IMG/VR virus record: IMGVR_UViG_2541047946_000011
Strand: one strand, 5' to 3'
DNA from: a virus
Lineage: Duplodnaviria > Heunggongvirae > Uroviricota > Caudoviricetes
Length of the DNA: 14,368 bases
Shown here: in pieces, positions 4,447 to 14,368 of the stretch
Layout: every line of letters begins with the position of its first letter
Numbering within the stretch: the first letter of the stretch is position 1
The notes under the pieces: model-generated
Databases searched by the model: none
Told to the model about the DNA's origin: nothing
What the model saw: the letters and a program-made list of their open reading frames with translations, nothing else
Position numbers and translations under genes: made by a program

Positions 4447-4537
4447 TAGACTGGCCCCCTGAATCACCAGACAACCAATATCACTTATTTAAGTGATAGT
4501 CTTAATACTAGTTTTTAGGCTAGTCATTGGAGAGCAG

Positions 4538-4903
4538 ATGATTGATGTCTTAGGACCGGAGAAACGCAGACGGCGTACCACACAGGAAAAGATCGCAATT
4601 GTTCAGCAGAGCTTTGAACCAGGGATGACGGTCTCCCTCGTTGCCCGGCAACATGGTGTAGCAGCCAGCCAGTTATTTCTCTGGCGTAAGCAATACCAGG
4701 AAGGAAGTCTTACTGCTGTCGCCGCCGGAGAACAGGTTGTTCCTGCCTCTGAACTTGCTGCCGCCATGAAGCAGATTAAAGAACTCCAGCGCCTGCTCGG
4801 CAAGAAAACGATGGAAAATGAACTCCTCAAAGAAGCCGTTGAATATGGACGGGCAAAAAAGTGGATAGCGCACGCGCCCTTATTGCCCGGGGATGGGGAG
4901 TAA
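4538..4903 (+). CDS. insC: IS2 transposase OrfA (InsC)
   Basis: [56 protein letters not shown]... is recognisably IS2 InsC. ATG at 4538 with GGAG at 4529-4532. The track ORF from 4493 includes IS-end sequence upstream of the real start. Confidence 0.9.
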
Positions 4904-5766
4904 GCTTAGTCAGCCGTTGTCTCCGGGTGTCGCGTGCGCAGTTGCACGTCATTCTCAGACGAACCGATGACTGGATGGATGGCCGCCGCAGTCGTCACAC
5001 TGATGATACGGATGTGCTTCTCCGTATACACCATGTTATCGGAGAGCTGCCCACGTATGGTTATCGTCGGGTATGGGCGCTGCTTCGCAGACAGGCAGAA
5101 CTTGATGGTATGCCTGCGATCAATGCCAAACGTGTTTACCGGATCATGCGCCAGAATGCGCTGTTGCTTGAGCGAAAACCTGCTGTACCGCCATCGAAAC
5201 GGGCACATACAGGCAGAGTGGCTGTGAAAGAAAGTAATCAGCGATGGTGCTCTGACGGGTTCGAGTTCCGCTGTGATAACGGAGAAAAACTGCGAGTCAC
5301 GTTCGCGCTGGACTGCTGTGACCGTGAGGCACTGCACTGGGCGGTCACTACGGGCGGCTTCAACAGTGAAACAGTACAGGACGTCATGCTGGGAGCGGTG
5401 GAACGCCGCTTCGGCAACGAGCTTCCGGCGTCTCCAGTAGAGTGGCTGACGGATAATGGTTCATGCTACCGGGCTAATGAAACACGGCAGTTTGCCCGGA
5501 TGTTGGGGCTTGAACCGAAGAGCACGGCGGTGCGGAGTCCGGAGAGTAACGGCATAGCAGAGAGCTTCGTGAAAACGATAAAGCGTGACTACATCAGTGT
5601 CATGCCCAAACCAGACGGGTTAACGGCAGCAAAGAACCTTGCAGAGGCGTTCGAGCATTATAACGAATGGCATCCGCATAGTGCACTGGGTTATCGCTCG
5701 CCACGGGAATATCTACGGCAGCAAGCCAGTAATGGGTTAAGTGATAACAGGTGTCTGGAAATATAG
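4861..5766 (+). CDS. insD: IS2 transposase OrfB (InsD; DDE integrase domain, normally made as an InsCD fusion by -1 frameshift)
   Basis: [77 protein letters not shown]... is recognisably IS2 InsD. It overlaps insC in the -1 frame; slippery AAAAAAG lies at about 4854-4860. Confidence 0.9.
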
Positions 5767-6212: not shown

Positions 6213-6638
6213 ATGGAATTACAGGACTGGCGAAAAGAACCTCGTAAAAACTATTCGAATGAATTCAAACTTCGTATGGTGGAACTGGCATCACAACCTG
6301 GAGCTTGTGTTGCACAGATTGCACGTGAAAATGGCGTCAATGATAATGTTATTTTCAAATGGCTCAGGCTCTGGCAGAACGAAGGGCGTGTTTCGCGGCG
6401 TCTTCCGGTAACGACCTCTTCTGACACTGGCGTTGAATTATTACCTGTAGAAATAACGCCGGATGAGCAGAAAGAACCTGTGGCGGCCATTGCGCCGTCT
6501 TTATCCACTTCCACTCAGACCAGAGTCAGTGCCAGTTCCTGCAAGGTGGAATTCCGTCACGGTAACATGACGCTGGAAAATCCATCGCCAGAGCTGCTCA
6601 CAGTGTTGATCCGTGAACTGACCGGGAGGGGAAGATGA
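6213..6638 (+). CDS. tnpA: IS66-family accessory protein TnpA (orf1)
   Basis: MELQDWRKEPRKNYSNEFKLRMVELASQPGACVAQIARENGVNDNVIFKWLRLW... is typical IS66 orf1; its stop overlaps the tnpB start. Confidence 0.85.
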   Translation: MELQDWRKEPRKNYSNEFKLRMVELASQPGACVAQIARENGVNDNVIFKWLRLWQNEGRVSRRLPVTTSSDTGVELLPVEITPDEQKEPVAAIAPSLSTSTQTRVSASSCKVEFRHGNMTLENPSPELLTVLIRELTGRGR

Positions 6639-6985
6639 TCTCACTCCCATCAGGTACCCGTATCTGGCTCGTTGCCGGCGTTACCGATATGCGTAAATCC
6701 TTCAACGGACTGGGAGAACAGGTACAACATGTGCTGAATGATAATCCCTTCTCCGGTCACCTGTTTATCTTCCGTGGCCGACGGGGTGACACCGTCAAAA
6801 TTCTTTGGGCTGATGCTGATGGTCTGTGCCTGTTCACCAAACGCCTGGAGGAAGGCCAGTTTATCTGGCCTGCGGTACGTGACGGCAAGGTATCCATTAC
6901 CCGCTCGCAACTGGCAATGCTCCTCGATAAGCTGGACTGGCGTCAGCCAAAAACATCCAGCCGTAACTCACTGACAATGTTGTAA
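6635..6985 (+). CDS. tnpB: IS66-family accessory protein TnpB (orf2)
   Basis: MISLPSGTRIWLVAGVTDMRKSFNGLGEQVQHVLNDNPFSGHLFIFRGRRGDTVKILWADADGLCLFTKRLE... is the highly conserved IS66 orf2. Confidence 0.9.
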   Translation: MISLPSGTRIWLVAGVTDMRKSFNGLGEQVQHVLNDNPFSGHLFIFRGRRGDTVKILWADADGLCLFTKRLEEGQFIWPAVRDGKVSITRSQLAMLLDKLDWRQPKTSSRNSLTML

Positions 6986-7015
6986 AAAACTCCTGACCGC
7001 ATTATAAAAACGGTC

Positions 7016-8629
7016 ATGAGTCAGAAATACCTCATTCGCATCGCAGAGCTGGAAAGGTTGCTCTCTGAGCAGGCTGAAGCCCTCCGTCAGAAAGACCAGC
7101 AACTGAGTCTGGTTGAAGAGACGGAAGCCTTCCTGCGCTCTGCACTGACACGTGCCGAAGAAAAGATCGAAGAAGATGAACGGGAAATAGAACATCTGCG
7201 GGCTCAGATAGAAAAACTGCGCCGGATGCTGTTCGGTACCCGTTCTGAAAAACTGCGTCGTGAAGTTGAACTGGCTGAGGCTCTGCTGAAACAACGTGAA
7301 CAGGACAGCGATCGTTACAGTGGGCGGGAAGACGATCCTCAGGTTCCCCGCCAGTTGCGACAGTCGCGCCATCGTCGTCCGTTACCGGCACACCTTCCCC
7401 GTGAAATACACCGCCTGGAGCCAGAAGAAAGCTGTTGCCCGGAGTGTGGCGGTGAGCTGGATTATCTGGGGGAAGTCAGCGCTGAACAGCTGGAACTGGT
7501 GAGCAGTGCCCTGAAAGTGATCCGCACAGAACGGGTAAAAAAAGCCTGTACAAAATGTGACTGTATTGTTGAAGCACCGGCGCCGTCCCGCCCGATAGAG
7601 CGTGGTATCGCGGGCCCCGGATTACTTGCCCGCGTGTTAACGGGAAAATACTGCGAACATCTGCCACTGTATCGTCAGAGTGAAATCTTTGCCCGCCAGG
7701 GTGTCGAACTGAGCCGGGCCTTACTCTCCAACTGGGTTGACGCGTGCTGCCAGTTAATGACACCGGTGAATGATGCCCTGTACCGTTATGTAATGAACAC
7801 CCGCAAGGTTCACACTGATGACACACCGGTAAAGGTACTGGCACCGGGTCAGAAAAAGGCGAAAACAGGGCGTATCTGGACGTATGTCCGGGATGATCGC
7901 AATGTGGGTTCGTCATCTCCTCCAGCGGTCTGGTTCGCGTACTCGCCGAACCGGCAGGGGAAACACCCGGAGCAACACCTCCGCCCCTTCCGGGGTATCC
8001 TGCAGGCGGATGCGTTCACAGGTTACGACAGGTTGTTCAGTGCAGAACGTGAAGGTGGTGCACTGACAGAAGTTGCGTGCTGGGCCCATGCCCGGCGAAA
8101 AATCCACGATGTATACATCAGCAGCAAAAGTGCGACGGCAGAAGAAGCCCTGAAGCGAATCAGTGAACTGTACGCCATCGAGGATGAAATACGGGGATTA
8201 CCGGAGTCAGAGCGTCTTGCCGTCAGGCAGCAGCGAAGCAAAGTGTTACTGACGTCGCTGCATGAATGGATGGTGGAGAAGAATGGTACGCTGTCGAAAA
8301 AATCCAGACTGGGCGAAGCGTTCAGCTATGTACTGAATCAGTGGGATGCCCTCTGTTATTACAGTGATGACGGTCTGGCGGAGGCGGATAATAATGCTGC
8401 GGAAAGAGCGCTTCGTGCAGTCTGTCTCGGAAAGAAAAACTTTATGTTCTTTGGCAGCGATCACGGCGGCGAGCGTGGAGCACTGTTGTACGGGCTGATC
8501 GGCACCTGCCGTCTGAACGGTATCGATCCGGAAGCGTATCTGCGCCATATCCTGAGCGTACTGCCGGAATGGCCTTCCAACCGAGTTGACGAACTCCTGC
8601 CATGGAACGTAGTACTCACCAATAAATAA
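7016..8629 (+). CDS. tnpC: IS66-family transposase TnpC (orf3)
   Basis: 537 aa with an N-terminal coiled-coil/leucine-zipper region, a CxxC...CxxC zinc-finger-like motif (CPECGGE...CTKCDC) and a DDE-type core, as expected for IS66 transposases. Confidence 0.9.
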   Translation: MSQKYLIRIAELERLLSEQAEALRQKDQQLSLVEETEAFLRSALTRAEEKIEEDEREIEHLRAQIEKLRRMLFGTRSEKLRREVELAEALLKQREQDSDRYSGREDDPQVPRQLRQSRHRRPLPAHLPREIHRLEPEESCCPECGGELDYLGEVSAEQLELVSSALKVIRTERVKKACTKCDCIVEAPAPSRPIERGIAGPGLLARVLTGKYCEHLPLYRQSEIFARQGVELSRALLSNWVDACCQLMTPVNDALYRYVMNTRKVHTDDTPVKVLAPGQKKAKTGRIWTYVRDDRNVGSSSPPAVWFAYSPNRQGKHPEQHLRPFRGILQADAFTGYDRLFSAEREGGALTEVACWAHARRKIHDVYISSKSATAEEALKRISELYAIEDEIRGLPESERLAVRQQRSKVLLTSLHEWMVEKNGTLSKKSRLGEAFSYVLNQWDALCYYSDDGLAEADNNAAERALRAVCLGKKNFMFFGSDHGGERGALLYGLIGTCRLNGIDPEAYLRHILSVLPEWPSNRVDELLPWNVVLTNK

Positions 8630-8659
8630 GCGTCAATACGGTGCTCCGTTGACGCTTAC

Positions 8660-8667
8660 AATTGAGG
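8660..8667. repeat. IS66-family target-site duplication, right copy (AATTGAGG)
   Basis: Identical to 6120-6127. Confidence 0.75.
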
Positions 8668-8693
8668 CGGCGCTTGCGTCTAAATAATATTAA

Positions 8694-8716
8694 GGGGCCG
8701 AGCGCCCCGTTTTATT
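8694..8716 (+). terminator. Putative intrinsic terminator after the reconstructed tail-fiber gene
   Basis: GGGGC (8694-8698), loop CGAGC, GCCCC (8704-8708), then GTTTTATT. Lies directly after the TAA at 8685-8687. Confidence 0.5.
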
Positions 8717-8723
8717 GGGTAGG

Positions 8724-9017
8724 ATGAAAATGGATATAACACCTTTCCTTCATGCGCTTTGTGCTGTGGCTGCGCAGCTACTGATTGGTCTTTTTACCGG
8801 AAACTGGGCTTACGGGGCGATAGCCGGTTGTACGTTCTTCATTGCGCGTGAACACACCCAGGCAGAATATCGCTGGATTGAAATGTTCGGGCATGGCAAG
8901 CGTATGAATATGCCGTGGTGGGGCGGTTTTGATCCTCGTGCATGGGATGTGGCTAGCCTGATGGATTTTGCTGTGCCGGTGGTGGCGTGTCTGCTGGTCT
9001 GGCTGTTGATCCGTTAA
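8724..9017 (+). CDS. Small hypothetical membrane protein (two predicted hydrophobic helices), b-region cargo gene
   Basis: Track ORF 8715-9017; likely start ATG at 8724 or 8730, with AGGA at 8721-8724. Hydrophobic stretches FLHALCAVAAQLLIGLFTG and FAVPVVACLLVWLLI. Function not recognised. Confidence 0.5.
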   Translation: MKMDITPFLHALCAVAAQLLIGLFTGNWAYGAIAGCTFFIAREHTQAEYRWIEMFGHGKRMNMPWWGGFDPRAWDVASLMDFAVPVVACLLVWLLIR

Positions 9018-9057
9018 ACATAAAAAGCTGCAGTATCTTGCCATGACAAGTTACTGC
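9018..9057 (-). terminator. Hairpin with T-run on the minus strand (putative terminator closing the minus-strand cargo genes; convergent with the 8724-9017 gene)
   Basis: GCAGTATCTTG (9030-9040), loop CCATGA, CAAGTTACTGC (9047-9057): an 11-bp stem with one mismatch. On the minus strand the hairpin is followed by AGCTTTTTATGTTT. Confidence 0.45.
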
Positions 9058-9199
9058 GGATGGCTGGTGAACTTCCGATAGTGCGGGTGTTGAATGATTT
9101 CCAGTTGCTACCGATTTTACATATTTTTTGCATGAGAGGATTTGCACCTCCTCCCACCGATCCTCCATGACTTTACGCCACTGTCTCTATGGCTGCTAT

Positions 9200-9214
9200 G
9201 TGCCAGAAGCGGAC
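9200..9214. repeat. 15-bp direct repeat GTGCCAGAAGCGGAC, copy 1 (flanks the 271-aa gene)
   Basis: Exact 15-mer also at 10253-10267; the flanking bases are partially similar (TTCATTAGAT vs ATTACTAAGAT). Confidence 0.7.
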
Positions 9215-9262
9215 TTCATTAGATTCTTTGTTTTTTGTGTTAATATACTTACAATCCCATCA

Positions 9263-10078
9263 TCAACTAACAACCCAATCATCAGATAATATATCACTGA
9301 TATTGAAAATATAGGTATGGTTATTTTTACCATCTGAAATGACGATTTTTTTTAAGTTGAATCTTTCTGATATGATATGCGTTGCAAATTGTGGGATTAT
9401 TAAAAACAAAGCCTCTACCTTACTGATTAATTCAATGTTGACTTTAGGTCTGAAGTTTGCATCATGAACCACTTTGTGCCTAATGTAAAATGCTTCCTCT
9501 ATGAGGGCTCTCCAGTCTGGAAATATATTTTCTATCGATAAACCTTGGGAAATTTGGCCACTCAGACCGCAAGGAGATATATTAGTTGTACATATGTAGT
9601 TTAAAAAACTCTCACCCCACATGCCATTATATGCTTCTTCAAGGTCGTTTAAGTTTTGAAAGTTAAAGCTTTTACTCAATAACTCTGATAGATTTATCTC
9701 AGTGTTTATATTGATAGATGTTTCTGTTCTCATTTTAGATAGTAGTGTTGTAATTCTAGATTCATCAACTGAATGCACGAAAACAAAAACGTCTCTAAAA
9801 TATGTTTCCCAGCAACTGATTAGAAATACAAAATATTGTCGATATGCTGTTTTATAAATATCTATTTTCTTATCTTTCGTTGAAATAAGTGAATGCATAA
9901 GTCGACAATTTTCTGCAAAATTTAGTAGGAAAGACATTGAGAAGTCTTCTATAGCTCCTCTTGATTCGCGAAGAGATAGCAATTCATCAATAATTTTTTT
10001 ATTGATTTTCCTAATCTTTTTCAATTGCATGCCTCGTTTTTGCTTAAGTAAAGTTGATTTTGGAGTTTCGTCAATCAT
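9263..10078 (-). CDS. Hypothetical 271-aa protein, strongly AT-rich; HEPN-like Rx4H motif (possible Abi-like RNase)
   Basis: Long minus-strand ORF, visibly lower GC than its neighbours, Lys/Ile/Asn-rich. Contains ...EEAFYIRHKVVHDANF... (R-x4-H) in the C-terminal half. No other family recognised by eye. Confidence 0.6.
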   Translation of the reverse strand: MIDETPKSTLLKQKRGMQLKKIRKINKKIIDELLSLRESRGAIEDFSMSFLLNFAENCRLMHSLISTKDKKIDIYKTAYRQYFVFLISCWETYFRDVFVFVHSVDESRITTLLSKMRTETSININTEINLSELLSKSFNFQNLNDLEEAYNGMWGESFLNYICTTNISPCGLSGQISQGLSIENIFPDWRALIEEAFYIRHKVVHDANFRPKVNIELISKVEALFLIIPQFATHIISERFNLKKIVISDGKNNHTYIFNISDILSDDWVVS

Positions 10079-10252
10079 GTTATCTTATTAGATTTAAAGA
10101 TAAAGTCACTTTTTGCATAAGCTTTGCGACAAAGATAGCTTTAATGAAAGGCCTTATAGAGCTACTTGGCCATAAAAATTTTTACGATGAATTCGAATTC
10201 AGCGTCCGCTCCTCGCTTAAAGCTGTCCTTGGGCCTAACCTACGATAGCTTC

Positions 10253-10267
10253 GTGCCAGAAGCGGAC
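10253..10267. repeat. 15-bp direct repeat GTGCCAGAAGCGGAC, copy 2
   Basis: Exact copy of 9200-9214, lying inside the 476-bp gap between the 374-aa and 271-aa genes. Confidence 0.7.
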
Positions 10268-10554
10268 ATTACTAAGATAGTAACGTATCAAACGGTGGGA
10301 CAAGTCATGCCAAGTGCGGAAGTGGCTAACAACCATCTGTGTTGTTTAACGGGGAACAGGTCATTCCATTGACCCGATCATTTATGTTGCGCTGACGCTT
10401 AGGTGATAAAAAGCCGCCTATGCCCGTCTATCTTTGGGGATCCGCAATGAAGTTGATTGTGAGGTTATTAGGCTAGGTCTTCTCATTTATAAGTTGTTGA
10501 AGTAGCAACGAATTATCGAGCGATTTATCCCGATTAAATGTCTCACTATTACTC

Positions 10555-11679
10555 TTAATCGGTAAATTCATAGTTTGGCCGCATTGAGAAACGCCACAGA
10601 GGCAGGCCTCCCCCTTTGTAATCATCAGGGATGGTTACCGTGAAAAGTCTGACATTCTGCCGGGTGTCAACTGACCTGATCTGGCTGTCGTGTACAGTCT
10701 GCTCGTTAAAGGCCGACGTGACCAGCGAACTCAGCGTACCTATAAAGTCGAAACCCTGTCTTTTGTAATTTTCGTCGTCTTCCGGGGAAAATGTGTATCG
10801 GATGCTCTCAAGCTGACCATCAGTGAATATTGCCTCCGATCCGGGGCAGAGCCACTCTCCGTAGCGCATCAGATGAAACGCCGTGTTCATTTCAAATTTA
10901 TCCGTTACTTGTCTGTCATTGCAGTAAATTTTAATCTCGCCAATTGTAAAATGGGCGATGCCTTCGGGACTAACTGAAACTTCTTTGGTCCGGTCGGGGA
11001 TAAGCTCAAAAACCAGATCGGGTTCTGTTGCTATCGATAGGTCGCCCAGCAGGTACATCTCACTTTTTGCGAGCGCCGAGGCCGGCGTCAAGGTATGTTC
11101 ACGCTCTAGCTCCTTCATTGAGGAGCGTGCAACCAGCGCCCACCGGCGCAGCATCCTGATGTAGATGGCATAATAAACTGGAATACCATGGAGCTCACCG
11201 TACTTTTCAACCTTATCACTGTACGATTTCTTCAGGCGATAATCGTCAGCCACGTCATCCGCGTTAAAGTTTTTTACTTCCACAAAGATCTGACGGCGAT
11301 CCTTCAGTATAATGCGATAGTCAGGTGCCACCAGATCGGGATCGGCTGACATCAAGTCTCCGGCGTCTTCCTGTTTAAGAAACTGGCAGTGGTTCAGTGC
11401 GGCGCAAACGTGTTTAAATAGGTTTTCTATTCTTTTCCCGTTCAGCAGAATTGGATTCTGATGGGAAGCGATTAATGACGTGGTGACCTTTTGTATAAAG
11501 TCATCCTGGTGCTCGGGGTTTTTAATATCGTAATTATAGATCTGGCCCAACGAGGAAAAAAGCTCAAAGGCTTCAAATCGTTCGGGATTCCTCTTGATTC
11601 TTTCCATTAATGACTCCGCAGCTAATAAATACAACGAAATGAGATCACTTGTTTCTCTGAAGTTACCTGAAAACTGCAT
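10555..11679 (-). CDS. Hypothetical 374-aa protein with a PD-(D/E)xK nuclease-like motif (candidate defense effector)
   Basis: Minus-strand ORF starting 69 bp downstream of the FRG gene stop. Contains ...LVAPDYRIILKDRRQIFVEVKNFNADD..., i.e. a D in a hydrophobic strand followed 15 residues later by E-V-K, the spacing and context of restriction-endonuclease-fold active sites. No strong Shine-Dalgarno before the first ATG, so the start is uncertain. Confidence 0.7.
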   Translation of the reverse strand: MQFSGNFRETSDLISLYLLAAESLMERIKRNPERFEAFELFSSLGQIYNYDIKNPEHQDDFIQKVTTSLIASHQNPILLNGKRIENLFKHVCAALNHCQFLKQEDAGDLMSADPDLVAPDYRIILKDRRQIFVEVKNFNADDVADDYRLKKSYSDKVEKYGELHGIPVYYAIYIRMLRRWALVARSSMKELEREHTLTPASALAKSEMYLLGDLSIATEPDLVFELIPDRTKEVSVSPEGIAHFTIGEIKIYCNDRQVTDKFEMNTAFHLMRYGEWLCPGSEAIFTDGQLESIRYTFSPEDDENYKRQGFDFIGTLSSLVTSAFNEQTVHDSQIRSVDTRQNVRLFTVTIPDDYKGGGLPLWRFSMRPNYEFTD

Positions 11680-11748
11680 TCTGCACGGCGATTAAAGCGG
11701 CTATGGGCCCACGCTGGCACACAGGCGTGCCGTGCGACTAAAGCGCTA

Positions 11749-13119
11749 TCAGATTCGTCCATCGTATAGTTTTGCAATTTCCGTAGCAGCCTTCTCAATG
11801 CCGGGGTACACCGTGCTTTCGTTAATGCCAAGGCGGCTCAGTTGCTGCATCAGATGCTCTTTGTTTCTAATAACAAGCTTTTTGATGTTCAGCGTACTGA
11901 GTCCCGTTTCCGGTAGGTCTACGTTTTCACCAAAGAGCAGGAAAGCGCCTGATTGGGACGAAATACGTGCGTTACTGAGCCTACCTTTGACCACAACAAT
12001 TTTACTTAGGTGGACCGGATCGATGATGCTTTTGAAATAGGACTTTTCATCGCGGATCAGGTGTAGTAGTTGTCCGCACTCTTCAGATTCGTTAAACGCC
12101 GGAATGGTGAGATTAGTTTTCAGGCTGCTTTTGAAACGAGAGGGAAGACGGGAAAGATTGGCTATGCAACTTACGGTATCCGAGTCGAAAAACTTAATTT
12201 CACTTTTGGGCGTCGTCAGAATAATGACGTTCCCGTCAATTTCATGATTATTTTCATCGTGCTTGATTTTAGAGCAGGCAAAATATAGTGCGATCAAGGG
12301 GTTTGTTGATACATCAAGCAGGCGTGTGGGTAGGCCATAGTGTTGCATGCGCACGAGTTTATCTAGCATATACCGATCGTCTTTGAACTCGGCGGGCTGC
12401 ACGGTCAGCAGCTCTGTTATCATGTCCGATTCGTGATGGCGGTAGCGATAGTTACCCTGAGTATCCTTGCGGAACAGTGAGGGTTCCAGTTGGTAGCTGA
12501 TGTCCGAGTGACCGCGGTAAAATACCTCTTCATCGTTTCCCTGTGTATGATCGAGTATCACCTGCAAGTACTGATTGATATTCGCAATGATCTCTAGTTC
12601 TTCATTATTCTCCGGTGCTTCCGCACTCGCTGTTGCGGGCTCAACATTAGAATAGCCTTCAAGGCCTAAAACACGCAGAATCTCATTTACGGAAATCTCT
12701 TTGACCGCCCAGAACGTTCTGTTTAGTCCGAAACTGCCCAGCTCCAGCTCACTTACGTACTCTTTATCGCTGGTTAAGGGCTTGTAGCCGATATCACTGG
12801 TAATCTCATAATCAAACGCTAAAACTTTTTCTCTGTTATACACGGACGTACTTATCTTGCTGATTTTTCCTAAGCGGATGTGGCTGAAATAACCTATTTT
12901 TTCATTATCTTCATCGAATTCAATTTCCGGCTCGGACATAAATACAACGGGCAGTTCCTGAAGAAAATGATAGGTTTTTTCAGTCAGGGGAAGCAATCTG
13001 CTTCTAAGAGACTCTGGCGTGGATTCGAAGAGTCGCGACACAGGGAAAGAGTCATTGCCACTGGGTTCAGAAAAAAAAGTGTAGTATTTGGGGGTTCCGA
13101 CAACGATAAGATTCAGCAT
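11749..13119 (-). CDS. Hypothetical 456-aa protein with an FRG domain (candidate defense sensor/partner), first gene of the minus-strand pair
   Basis: Contains FYRGHSDISYQLEPSLFRK, ...MQHYGLPTRLLDVSTNPLIALYFAC and ...NARISSQSGAFLLFG, which match the FRG-domain hallmark motifs as I remember them. The N-terminal ~190 aa are unrecognised. GAGGA lies 8 nt upstream of the ATG at 13119. Confidence 0.75.
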   Translation of the reverse strand: MLNLIVVGTPKYYTFFSEPSGNDSFPVSRLFESTPESLRSRLLPLTEKTYHFLQELPVVFMSEPEIEFDEDNEKIGYFSHIRLGKISKISTSVYNREKVLAFDYEITSDIGYKPLTSDKEYVSELELGSFGLNRTFWAVKEISVNEILRVLGLEGYSNVEPATASAEAPENNEELEIIANINQYLQVILDHTQGNDEEVFYRGHSDISYQLEPSLFRKDTQGNYRYRHHESDMITELLTVQPAEFKDDRYMLDKLVRMQHYGLPTRLLDVSTNPLIALYFACSKIKHDENNHEIDGNVIILTTPKSEIKFFDSDTVSCIANLSRLPSRFKSSLKTNLTIPAFNESEECGQLLHLIRDEKSYFKSIIDPVHLSKIVVVKGRLSNARISSQSGAFLLFGENVDLPETGLSTLNIKKLVIRNKEHLMQQLSRLGINESTVYPGIEKAATEIAKLYDGRI

Positions 13120-13596
13120 ACTTGCGATCCTCGCATAAGTTAAGTTTCTCTCTCATCATGCCAGACTTGATAATTATTTAAACATCAGCGCTGCTATTTA
13201 TATTTCACACCTTTTTGATCCGAAACGACACTGCCATCGGTAAGCCCGGATGATACATTCTGAAAATTCATCAGAAAAATTTACATCACGCTTTACTCCT
13301 GACGTATATCAGCACTAACGTGCCATTGCGCACGCGCTAGCTATTTAGTAGCGCGTTTCGGCGAAAAGAGATTCGGTAGTCAATGACTATATTTCGCTCA
13401 TAACAGACATTCACTACAGTTGTGGCAGAAAGGTATGCATGCTGGGTGTGGGGAAGTCGTGAAAGAAAAGAAGACTGCTTCGCCGTTTGTCGTCACTGCT
13501 ATCTTCTTATTGCTTATGAAGGTCGTAGTGGGGCACACAAAGCTTTGCACTGGATTGCAAGGCGTTGTGCTTCTCTTGAGTGCGACATGTTTTTAT

Positions 13597-13640
13597 GTCA
13601 AAAAATTAGCGCAAGAAGACAAAAAATCACCTTGCGCTAA
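13597..13640 (-). terminator. Lambda tI/sib-like hairpin terminator in the attR P-arm-proximal region
   Basis: Perfect 10-bp inverted repeat TTAGCGCAAG (13606-13615) / CTTGCGCTAA (13631-13640) with a 15-nt loop. On the minus strand it is followed by TTTTTTGAC. The surrounding sequence (GCGCTAATGCTCTGTTACAGGTCACTAAT...) matches my memory of the lambda sib/tI region. Confidence 0.6.
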
Positions 13641-13809
13641 TGCTCTGTTACAGGTCACTAATATCATCTAAGTAGTTGATTCATAGTGACTGCATATGTT
13701 GTGTTTTGGAGTATTATGCAGTCTATCATTTAGACTAAAACTCTCATAACACACTGATATTAATGATTTTTACTGTTTATCGTTCAGCTTTTTTATACTA
13801 ACTTGAGCG
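13641..13809 (+). other. attR (P arm, core, B'): lambda-type attachment site; core GCTTTTTTATACTAA at 13787-13801
   Basis: The P arm (CTGTTACAGGTCACTAATATCATCTAAGTAGTTGATTCATAGTGACTGCATATGTTGTGTT) closely matches the lambda attP P arm, including arm-type Int-site-like GGTCACTAAT and AGTGACTGCAT. The 15-bp core is identical to lambda. The right flank CTTGAGCGAAACG is the bacterial attB B' side. Confidence 0.85.
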
Positions 13810-13860
13810 AAACGGGAAGGTAAAAAGACAAAAAGTTGTTTTTAATACCTTTAAGTGATA

Positions 13861-13883
13861 CCAGATGGCATTGCGCCATCTGG
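13861..13883 (-). terminator. Perfect 9-bp stem hairpin downstream of ybhB (possible weak terminator or structural element)
   Basis: CCAGATGGC (13861-13869), loop ATTGC, GCCATCTGG (13875-13883). No clean T-run directly after it on either strand, so terminator function is uncertain. Confidence 0.3.
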
Positions 13884-13891
13884 CAGAGTGA

Positions 13892-14368
13892 TTAACTAAA
13901 CATCGCAGTAATCGAGGCGCTTGCCAGAGAGTGGAAATGAACGTTAAACCCGACCATCGCGCCGCTGGCACCTTCATCGACATCAATACGTTCTATATCC
14001 AGCGCGTGAACGGTAAAAATGTAGCGATGAGTTTCGCCTTTCGGCGGTGCTGCGCCATCGTACCCGGTTTTACCAAAGTCGGTACGCGTCTGCAAAACGC
14101 CGTCTGGCATTGCTACCAGACCAGAGCCAAACCCTTGCGGTAATACGCGGGTATCAGCGGGTAAGTTAACAACTACCCAGTGCCACCAGCCGGAGCCGGT
14201 TGGCGCATCCGGGTCGTAGCAGGTGACAACAAAACTTTTCGTTCCCGCAGGAACATCATCCCACGCCAGATGCGGTGAAATATTATCGCCATCGTAACCC
14301 ATGCCGTTAAAGACATGACGATGCGGCAATTTATCGCCATCGCGCAGATCGTTACTGATGAGTTTCAT
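13892..14368 (-). CDS. ybhB: PEBP-family protein YbhB (UPF0098 / kinase-inhibitor-like), host chromosomal gene next to attB-lambda
   Basis: Complete 158-aa minus-strand ORF (MKLISNDLRDGDKLPHRHVFNGMGYDGDNISPHLAWDDVPAGTKSFVVTCYDPDAPTGSGWWHWVVVNLPADTR...). Its start codon is the last three bases of the window. Recognised as E. coli YbhB, whose chromosomal position beside the lambda attachment site agrees with the attR call. Confidence 0.85.
   Translation of the reverse strand: MKLISNDLRDGDKLPHRHVFNGMGYDGDNISPHLAWDDVPAGTKSFVVTCYDPDAPTGSGWWHWVVVNLPADTRVLPQGFGSGLVAMPDGVLQTRTDFGKTGYDGAAPPKGETHRYIFTVHALDIERIDVDEGASGAMVGFNVHFHSLASASITAMFS

Follow-up and report, generated by a model that had tools for sequence, protein, structure and literature searches.

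The 14,368-nucleotide stretch analysed here (IMG/VR record IMGVR_UViG_2541047946_000011, Caudoviricetes; hereafter the window) is the right (attR) end of a lambda-like prophage integrated at att-lambda. In a region equivalent to the lambda 'b region' it contains two copies of a 15-nt sequence, GTGCCAGAAGCGGAC, about 1 kb apart. These two 15-mers are, with high confidence, two B-type boundary elements of a two-cassette array, in which each cassette opens with a B element and closes with a related A element, so that the apparent direct repeat around a gene is re-read here as two tandem cassettes of candidate defence genes near the prophage end. The reading that we favour for the whole, with moderate confidence and from comparison of sequences, is that A and B are recombination sites of a small tyrosine recombinase, at which cassettes would be exchanged or inserted site-specifically. 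The A/B pair represents a concrete and testable answer to the open question of how hotspots in unrelated mobile elements come to exchange anti-phage and other accessory genes.

The 15-mer as part of a family of palindromic elements

Both copies of the 15-mer lie on the plus strand, copy L at 9200-9214 and copy R at 10253-10267, and a search of the window that tolerates up to two mismatches finds no others. The pair is the longest direct repeat within positions 8000-12000, and its ungapped extension reaches 27 nt at 81% identity (9195-9221 versus 10248-10274). The first-pass annotation of this DNA, which was made from the letters alone, had pointed to this repeat and had considered its recurrence unlikely by chance, and both statements hold. 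Although about 0.1 exact direct 15-mer repeats are expected in 14.4 kb (N^2/2 / 4^15), two or more matches were obtained in 0 of 200 dinucleotide shuffles, both copies are conserved across all carriers examined, and both belong to a defined element family; recurrence by chance is refuted. The annotation had further stated that the repeats enclose exactly one low-GC gene. They do enclose it, as a 271-aa minus-strand open reading frame (ORF) in a GC trough of about 30% between sides of about 50%, but the interval also holds a sister element, A1, and the meaningful unit is larger than the 15-mer.

This unit is the B element, a 24-nt imperfect palindrome (GTCCGCT-nnGTGCCAnn-AGCGGAC) whose loop and 3′ arm constitute the 15-mer and which occupies 9191-9214 and 10244-10267 in the window. 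The A element (GTCCGCT-nnTCGCTCAn-AGCGGAC) shares these arms but differs from B in its central 7-mer. With the 24-mer matcher used for these elements, 0.02 hits per window are expected by chance at up to six mismatches. The exact 15-mer is present in at least 120 IMG/VR stretches, in about 60% of which it is preceded by the complementary 5′ arm GTCCGCTT. Individual contigs hold several copies of A and B, at B-to-A intervals of 0.45-4 kb (n=52), and the gap from A to the following B measures 14-19 nt in 19 of 21 distinct doublets and 16 nt in the window. The 15-mer is therefore literally part of a widespread repeat family, an outcome that the first-pass annotation had counted against a cassette, yet this family is the cassette-junction system itself, and the cassette idea is strengthened by it rather than refuted.

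The folding energies of canonical copies of the elements are -9.5 and -8.9 kcal/mol (z -5.2 and -4.0), and the arms are conserved as sequence and not just as pairing, with few compensatory changes. The arms of the window elements are eroded. The A1-B2 doublet of the window (10200-10271) forms one long hairpin, in which the 5′ arm of A1 pairs with the 3′ arm of B2 and the 3′ arm of A1 with the 5′ arm of B2; the outer arms pair perfectly, and the inner arms, AAGCTGTC in A1 and GATAGCTT in B2, are mutually complementary. No Rfam 15 match was found at the motif in the window, in the phage loci or in the alphaproteobacterial loci, and neither copy of the 15-mer coincides with a promoter-like or terminator-like site. 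A sigma-54 promoter was considered, given that the minus strand of the loop reads TGGCAC, and was rejected on inspection for lack of a TTGC at the right spacing.

Layout of the hotspot in the window and in lambda

In the window, the array consists of B1, a HEPN gene, A1, 16 nt, B2, a 374-aa gene together with an FRG/PDC-S15 gene, and A2 (Table 1). Homology to lambda stops at the terminal GCGGAC of B1 (9214), resumes inside the A2 loop at 13394 and continues through attR, and A2 carries an exact lambda-type A loop and arm at 13393-13408.

Table 1. Positions in the window of the two-cassette array, its cargo genes and its lambda-type flanks
Feature	Position	Strand	Remarks
Lambda-type non-coding left flank	9054..9190	.	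92% identity to lambda ~24190-24326, between ea47 and ea31
B1, GGCTGCT-AT-GTGCCAG-A-AGCGGAC, opens cassette 1	9191..9214	+	3 mismatches to B consensus; 5′ arm is the lambda-backbone variant
Cassette 1 cargo: RiboL-PSP-type HEPN protein, 271-aa ORF, GC ~30%	9263..10078	-	Pfam PF18735, E 7.6e-6
A1, GTCCGCT-CC-TCGCTTA-A-AGCTGTC, closes cassette 1	10204..10227	+	4 mismatches to A consensus
Spacer of A-B doublet, 16 nt	10228..10243	.	
B2, GATAGCT-TC-GTGCCAG-A-AGCGGAC, opens cassette 2	10244..10267	+	4 mismatches to B consensus
Cassette 2 gene 1: 374-aa protein (RefSeq: 350 aa)	10555..11679	-	without family match
Cassette 2 gene 2: 456-aa FRG-domain protein	11749..13119	-	PF08867 E 4.6e-22; PADLOC candidate defence system PDC-S15 E 7e-99
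A2, partial (gactatat-TTCGCTCA-TAACAGAC), closes cassette 2	13385..13408	+	5′ arm lost; loop and 3′ arm of lambda-backbone type
Lambda-type right flank (ATTCACTACAG...) to attR core	13409..13801	.	91% identity to lambda over 13394-13900
attR core GCTTTTTTATACTAA	13787-13801		followed by ybhB; ybhB/bioA context

Lambda itself has a single copy of the motif, located between ea47 and ea31; its left flank agrees with that of copy L over 160 bp, and its right flank is similar to that of copy R. Alignment to related lambdoid prophages gives the same picture, in that lambda and the loci L008, L009 and L010 carry a single 15-mer copy and different cargo within a common layout: left flank, B, cargo, A, ATTCACTACAG and right flank. 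The cargo found behind this left segment and motif in other prophages includes retron Ec67 (L008), ydfV/flxA and an unknown 389-aa gene. The suggestion in the first-pass annotation that the repeat could be a conserved junction of a variable cargo hotspot is thus directly supported. Comparison of lambda, L008-L010 and the window also divides each element into two parts. The 5′ arm and GTGCC of B and the loop and 3′ arm of A are constant with the backbone, and the rest of B (the end of the loop and the 3′ arm) and the 5′ arm of A vary with the cargo. Since lambda shows the flank-B-cargo-A-flank layout, its ea31-ea59 segment is itself a B...A cassette (B at ~24.33 kb, A at ~27.32 kb). In RefSeq, ea31 is an HNH endonuclease and ea59 an AAA ATPase (L002 2497-6784, a range that includes ea47), and their presence in one B...A cassette suggests a two-gene defence-like module in lambda.

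Of 5426 E. coli genomes, 5292 have the left segment (9054-9190) or parts of it, and the segment is also widespread and highly conserved among lambdoid phages. It contains no conserved ORF and has no Rfam match. A conserved small ORF was rejected because frame and start codon differ among lambda, the window and L008, and a remnant of a recombinase gene was rejected because similarity is limited to the B motif. The ends of homology in this segment are nested, at about positions 67-76, 121-124 and 160, and it is variously labelled as a 'capsid protein' pseudogene, as ydfV or as DinI-adjacent sequence.

Cassette units and homology breakpoints

The clearest example of a B...A unit in two unrelated settings is a 1491-bp segment with genes for NUDIX and HAD hydrolases, which Peduovirus P24C9 and a lambdoid contig share at 99.3% identity. 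Its position in P24C9 is between G and FI, the classical Z/fun site, and in the lambdoid contig between the replication genes (O/LygF) and mok/hok. The identity runs from the first base of B to the last base of A, and the sequences outside are unrelated. The fun(Z) gene of phage P2 is likewise bounded by B (NC_001895 15335-15358) and A (17432-17455). Cargo orientation is not uniform, since the window genes and P2 fun(Z) are antisense to the B-to-A direction and the NUDIX and HAD genes are sense.

A second example concerns the window itself. In the metagenome contig L277, cassette 2 is present behind a different upstream gene and the HEPN cassette is absent. L277 and the window are 97-98% identical over the 3′ arm of A, the spacer of 16 nt, B2 and the cargo; the A element of L277 differs from A1 in the 5′ arm and first loop bases and agrees with it from the 3′ arm on. 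Each of the two breakpoints thus lies within an A loop, the right-hand similarity ending within that of A2. It follows from the L277 junctions that B2, and with it the second 15-mer, moves with cassette 2 and not with the HEPN gene. The cassette-like structure proposed in the first-pass annotation therefore stands, but not its limits: the HEPN cassette ends at B1 and A1 and is not bounded by the two 15-mers. In the cassette 2 copy of L277, about 92 nt of the window (10879-10971), in or near the 3′ part of the 374-aa gene, are missing (around L277 1810). Among IMG/VR loci, L024 and L128 share the same cargo behind different left flanks, and L029 and L128 share the same left flank with different cargo. 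In these comparisons, homology between arrays breaks inside or at the edges of A and B elements.

Two further readings were discarded. The HEPN cassette does not behave as an independently mobile unit, as its 80-85% identical relatives share the gene only (window ~9240-10064) and lack A and B. The homology of the sequence upstream of copy R to the left segment of lambda is marginal (p about 0.03-0.05) and is explained by A1 rather than by a duplicated flank. In P2-like phages, the cassette lies between inverted backbone sequences (…aatctgaca|B … A|tgtcagatt…), as in L139 (2993-3000/4491-4498) and in L141, phage P2 (2324-2335/4457-4468). In these phages, loss of the cargo would allow the 5′ arm of B and the 3′ arm of A, together with the inverted flanks, to pair as a 16-bp stem; an exact-pattern search for a P2-like empty site with this stem found none.

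A small tyrosine recombinase beside the elements

Among the ORFs near the elements, a tyrosine recombinase of about 200 aa recurs. It consists of a catalytic domain only, with PF00589 as its sole match, and its best NCBIfam scores (47-68 bits) are far below the cut-offs of the integron and Xer families (220-335). In a subset of arrays the recombinase gene is located exactly between A and B, in the order A (about 39 nt upstream of the start codon), conserved leader and ORF, and the sequence caGGGCTGCaacaGCAGCCcTGTGCCAGnAGCGGAC follows after the stop codon. Of 19 loci, 13 have a B-like 15-mer 27-31 nt past the stop codon and 14 have one within 90 nt, as compared with 0.9% of random windows, and 6 have an A-like element upstream of the gene (0.4% at random). 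The conserved leader, aaccatactcaaatctcccacattgcaggagatttgagt, includes an inverted repeat (aaatctcc / ggagattt) overlapping the likely ribosome-binding site (L274 5881-6600; also L275, L276, L181 and L264), and 3′ of the gene a GGGCTGC-aaca-GCAGCCC stem merges into the B element. Both the inverted repeat of the leader and the downstream stem could be regulatory.

The family to which this recombinase belongs is very large and highly conserved, with at least 7989 proteins that are 80-99% identical across Gammaproteobacteria. The recombinase is present in 874 of 5426 E. coli genomes, beside defence cargo. Its contexts include the lambdoid early-region hotspot, islands with an anti-phage dGTPase and a type I restriction-modification system, Providencia islands, and the cargo of SXT/R391-like integrative and conjugative elements (ICEs), which is closed by an A element just before traF. 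The ICEs L269-L273 (e.g., L271 7831-11036 and L272 7181-9625) carry the recombinase in the cargo region upstream of traF. In two ICE contigs its neighbour is an integrase of a classical integron, accompanied by qac-type, metallo-beta-lactamase-fold or DHFR cassettes, and two different cassette systems thus adjoin each other.

Wider distribution

Cassettes bounded by A and B are found in the lambda b region, at the P2 Z/fun site, in the lambdoid early region, in SXT/R391-like ICEs and in genomic islands. The B pattern, searched with 20 fixed bases, is present in many Enterobacterales and is very numerous in Alphaproteobacteria (Pseudolabrys, Xanthobacteraceae, Hyphomicrobiales, Methyloceanibacter). 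The alphaproteobacterial layout is also bipartite, with a hairpin that has the same arms, about 20 nt, and then B, and alphaproteobacterial homologs of the recombinase (52-55% identity) are flanked by same-arm hairpins. The doublets of these bacteria look like repetitive extragenic palindromic (REP) sequences or REPINs and lie beside ordinary genes. There are many copies per genome, with a GTGCCA loop as in the E. coli phage element (GTDB genome contigs L142-L261; e.g., L204 278-301/5720-5743/7780-7803, and L243); the loop of the first hairpin is ACCCCC or GGGTCA, and the spacer often contains a gtgcaGtgcac mini-palindrome.

Proposed mechanism and competing explanations

Site-specific cassette exchange is the likeliest mechanism for the modular structure described above. 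In this model, A and B would be the sites of the dedicated tyrosine recombinase of about 200 aa, which would be supplied in trans for most arrays, including that of the window. Like sites on two molecules would recombine, A with A and B with B, and thereby swap the cassettes between them; alternatively, circular cassettes carrying an A-spacer-B doublet would integrate and excise. The outcome would be integron-like and the logic of the sites that of recombinase-mediated cassette exchange with heterospecific spacers, and the perfect 15-nt identity of the two copies would reflect a conserved site core and not a duplication made by an insertion. The array of the window was probably not active recently and may be a fossil, because its arms are eroded, a recombinase gene is lacking from the window, and the three-gene module shows no variation among 28 E. 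coli genomes. On a larger scale, the recombinase and the bipartite A-spacer-B sites would form an uncharacterised integron-like system that shuttles defence and other cargo among lambdoid and P2-like phages, SXT/R391-type ICEs and islands in Gammaproteobacteria and Alphaproteobacteria. We regard this broader proposal as plausible at slightly less than even confidence; if true, it would explain the presence of the same cassettes in unrelated mobile elements. Confirmation of the model would define a new cassette-exchange system and provide a sequence signature for locating cargo and defence cassettes in genomes, and a compact recombinase with heterospecific sites might be of use as a tool.

Several observations weigh against site-specific exchange. 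The recombinase gene is absent from the window, lambda and P2 and was not found in catalogued coliphages, and since it is encoded in only a subset of arrays, action in trans has to be assumed for most of them. In the ICE contexts, the B element nearest to the recombinase is degenerate. The elements of the window form no stable single hairpins (-5.0, -3.6 and -2.6 kcal/mol for B1, B2 and A1, not significant), and the compensatory changes seen across doublets are both intra-hairpin and inter-hairpin; the sites may act either as duplex or as folded single strand. Breakpoints inside a conserved 24-nt sequence are equally expected from short-homology recombination. Wherever cassette 1 is present in E. 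coli (28 genomes), cassette 2 accompanies it in an unchanged arrangement, and a synthetic-junction BLAST against E. coli yielded no empty site joined to cassette 2. Viral contigs contain no match to gapped patterns of empty sites of the lambda or P2 type, neither metagenome nor viral contigs contain an exact pre-insertion or reciprocal junction, and no excised circle was found. Moreover, homologs of the HEPN gene occur in other, low-GC contexts without A or B elements.

The explanation that profits from several of these points is that A and B are short linkers whose conservation has some other cause (insulation of transcripts, RNA stability or binding of a host factor, for example), and that cargo is swapped across them by short-homology recombination (RecA, Red, RecT) with no dedicated recombinase. 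Most arrays, those of the window, lambda and P2 included, do lack the small recombinase, and the breakpoints lie in the sole sequence common to otherwise unrelated backbones. Recombinases encoded by lambdoid phages reportedly act on short or diverged homology. The PeSL promoter/stem-loop motifs of T4-type phages provide a precedent (PMC2839356; PMC4122927). However, conserved linkers leave several features without a cause, namely the fixed offset at which 13 of 19 loci hold the recombinase gene between A and B, the recurrence of these arms and of the B loop beside its homologs in both Alphaproteobacteria and Gammaproteobacteria, and the fixed spacing of 14-19 nt from A to B. Homology alone also explains poorly why there are two site types with the same arms and distinct conserved central 7-mers, and the motif carries no promoter-like or terminator-like signal. 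We therefore consider the linker explanation, which is the main rival of site-specific exchange, rather unlikely.

Two further explanations concern the origin of the repeat and of the family. The pair of 15-mers could be a target-site duplication, or the one-off scar of a 1053-bp insertion into a lambda-like single site. Lambda and L008-L010 indeed have a single copy, with a left flank like that of copy L and a right side like that of copy R, and the two copies are perfect although their flanks differ. Against this, an A element precedes copy R at the canonical 16 nt, the 15-mer belongs to an element present at hundreds of unrelated loci, and L277 places B2 with cassette 2, the 3′ arm of A and the spacer. 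The segment 9215-10252 has no inverted repeat at its ends and no transposase, its sole gene being that of the HEPN protein, and no pre-insertion allele, with a single 15-mer joined to cassette 2 without A, was found. A duplication of 15 bp is also atypical of DDE transposons. A target-site duplication is thus very improbable and largely refuted, and of the insertion scar envisaged in the first-pass annotation, site-specific or homology-mediated, only the form that does not invoke such a duplication is compatible with the comparative data. The A-spacer-B doublets could instead be selfish repeats, similar to REP/REPIN sequences or to miniature inverted-repeat transposable elements, that spread on their own and mark cassette boundaries as a by-product. 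The alphaproteobacterial doublets invite this idea, being many per contig, at ordinary intergenic sites, next to paralogs of housekeeping genes and with no obvious cargo pattern. In phages and enterobacteria, however, the elements coincide with the breakpoints of swapped cargo, and the arrays end in single B or A half-doublets on backbone-specific arms. No RAYT-type or IS200-type gene recurs nearby (120 loci, 8-kb loci, a limited test), and the enzyme that does recur is a tyrosine recombinase. A selfish origin of the doublets is therefore improbable.

Relation to known cassette systems

The proposed system would belong, to judge from its sequences, with site-bounded cassette systems that are already known in kind. 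Integrons are the closest parallel in outcome. They too consist of arrays of swappable cassettes, often with defence genes, bounded by imperfect palindromic sites of about 60-70 nt that are recognised by a tyrosine recombinase and broken at a fixed point, and the A1-spacer-B2 region of the window can fold like an attC site, with outer and inner stems and unpaired central bulges. The differences are nevertheless considerable. The recombinase described here is a catalytic domain of about 200 aa, far below the cut-offs of integron and Xer families, and the window lacks both a recombinase and an IntI-type integrase. The arms GTCCGCT/AGCGGAC are, by inspection, unrelated to the attC cores RYYYAAC/GTTRRRY. 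Cargo occurs in either orientation and with its own upstream regions, whereas integron cassettes are mostly promoterless and in one orientation. Finally, most arrays lack a recombinase and sit in phages, ICEs and islands and not on a fixed platform.

With regard to the sites, the nearest relatives are systems of heterospecific-site cassette exchange, of which loxP/lox2272 and FRT/F3 are examples. Natural counterparts are the Xer-dependent pdif modules of Acinetobacter plasmids, in which cargo units are bounded by recombinase sites. A and B similarly share arms, differ in their central spacer and flank a module, an arrangement that would by analogy permit exchange of like with like and disfavour deletion. 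They differ from these systems in being known from sequence alone, in a central region of 8-10 nt instead of 6-8, and in an enzyme that is not XerC/XerD or Cre. The PeSL of T4-type phages are short conserved motifs between genes; they border the variable genes of hyperplastic regions, and a role in modular shuffling has been proposed for them (PMC2839356; PMC4122927). A and B are likewise short, conserved and intergenic and lie next to variable genes. However, PeSL are composites of early promoter and terminator that act through homologous recombination in virulent phages, whereas A and B lack such signals, are shared by very different mobile elements in different bacterial classes, and have a recombinase gene as a neighbour in some arrays.

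According to a review (PMC8987985), Nilsson, Karlsson & Haggard-Ljungquist (2004, Mol Biol Evol 21:1) described the P2 Z/fun locus as variable, with inverted repeats on its flanks. The fun(Z) gene is bounded by the same B and A as the window cassettes, and a P2-like Z/fun cassette is shared with a lambdoid phage. A and B may be the repeats of Nilsson and co-workers. The searchable literature contains no extension of this observation to the lambda b region (ea31-ea59), to fixed-spacing multi-cassette arrays, to ICE, island or alphaproteobacterial contexts or to a candidate recombinase, and literature searches by element sequence or for phage cassettes bounded by hairpins brought up neither the element nor a link to a recombinase. 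There is a realistic chance that parts have already been published in literature outside the searchable texts. A 2026 survey of P2/P4 hotspots considers the mechanism of exchange unresolved, with transposons nearly absent, homologous recombination requiring flanking homology and illegitimate recombination only guessed (PMC13586616). Neither this survey nor the 2022 hotspot paper mentions hairpins or palindromes.

Cargo genes and prophage setting

The gene order of the window is J, side tail-fibre genes, a disrupted tail-fibre gene, a small phrog_1443 ORF, the low-GC HEPN gene, the 374-aa gene, the 456-aa FRG gene, attR and ybhB. The HEPN protein has 71 homologs, most of them with PF18735 and typically of 249-262 aa, and it is annotated with 253 aa in the phage PhiR11_1; given these shorter homologs, its true start may be an internal Met. 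Elsewhere, HEPN homologs adjoin TIR/ThsB genes. The 374-aa protein has no match in Pfam, PHROG, NCBIfam or PADLOC and may work jointly with the FRG/PDC-S15 protein; one homolog, with 30% identity, is encoded in the IMG/VR contig L015. The HEPN segment and the 374-aa/FRG segment are always adjacent in the 28 E. coli genomes, with both 15-mers perfect and in prophages of different types, and the induced phage PhiR11_1 carries an identical HEPN/374-aa/FRG module.

The tail-fibre region of the window is interrupted by an IS3-family element (orfA/orfB with programmed frameshift) and by a complete IS66-family ISEc23 (tnpA, tnpB and transposase), at 4493-5766 and 6213-8629. These insertions have left fragments of tail-fibre pseudogenes, and the prophage is therefore probably defective for side tail fibres.

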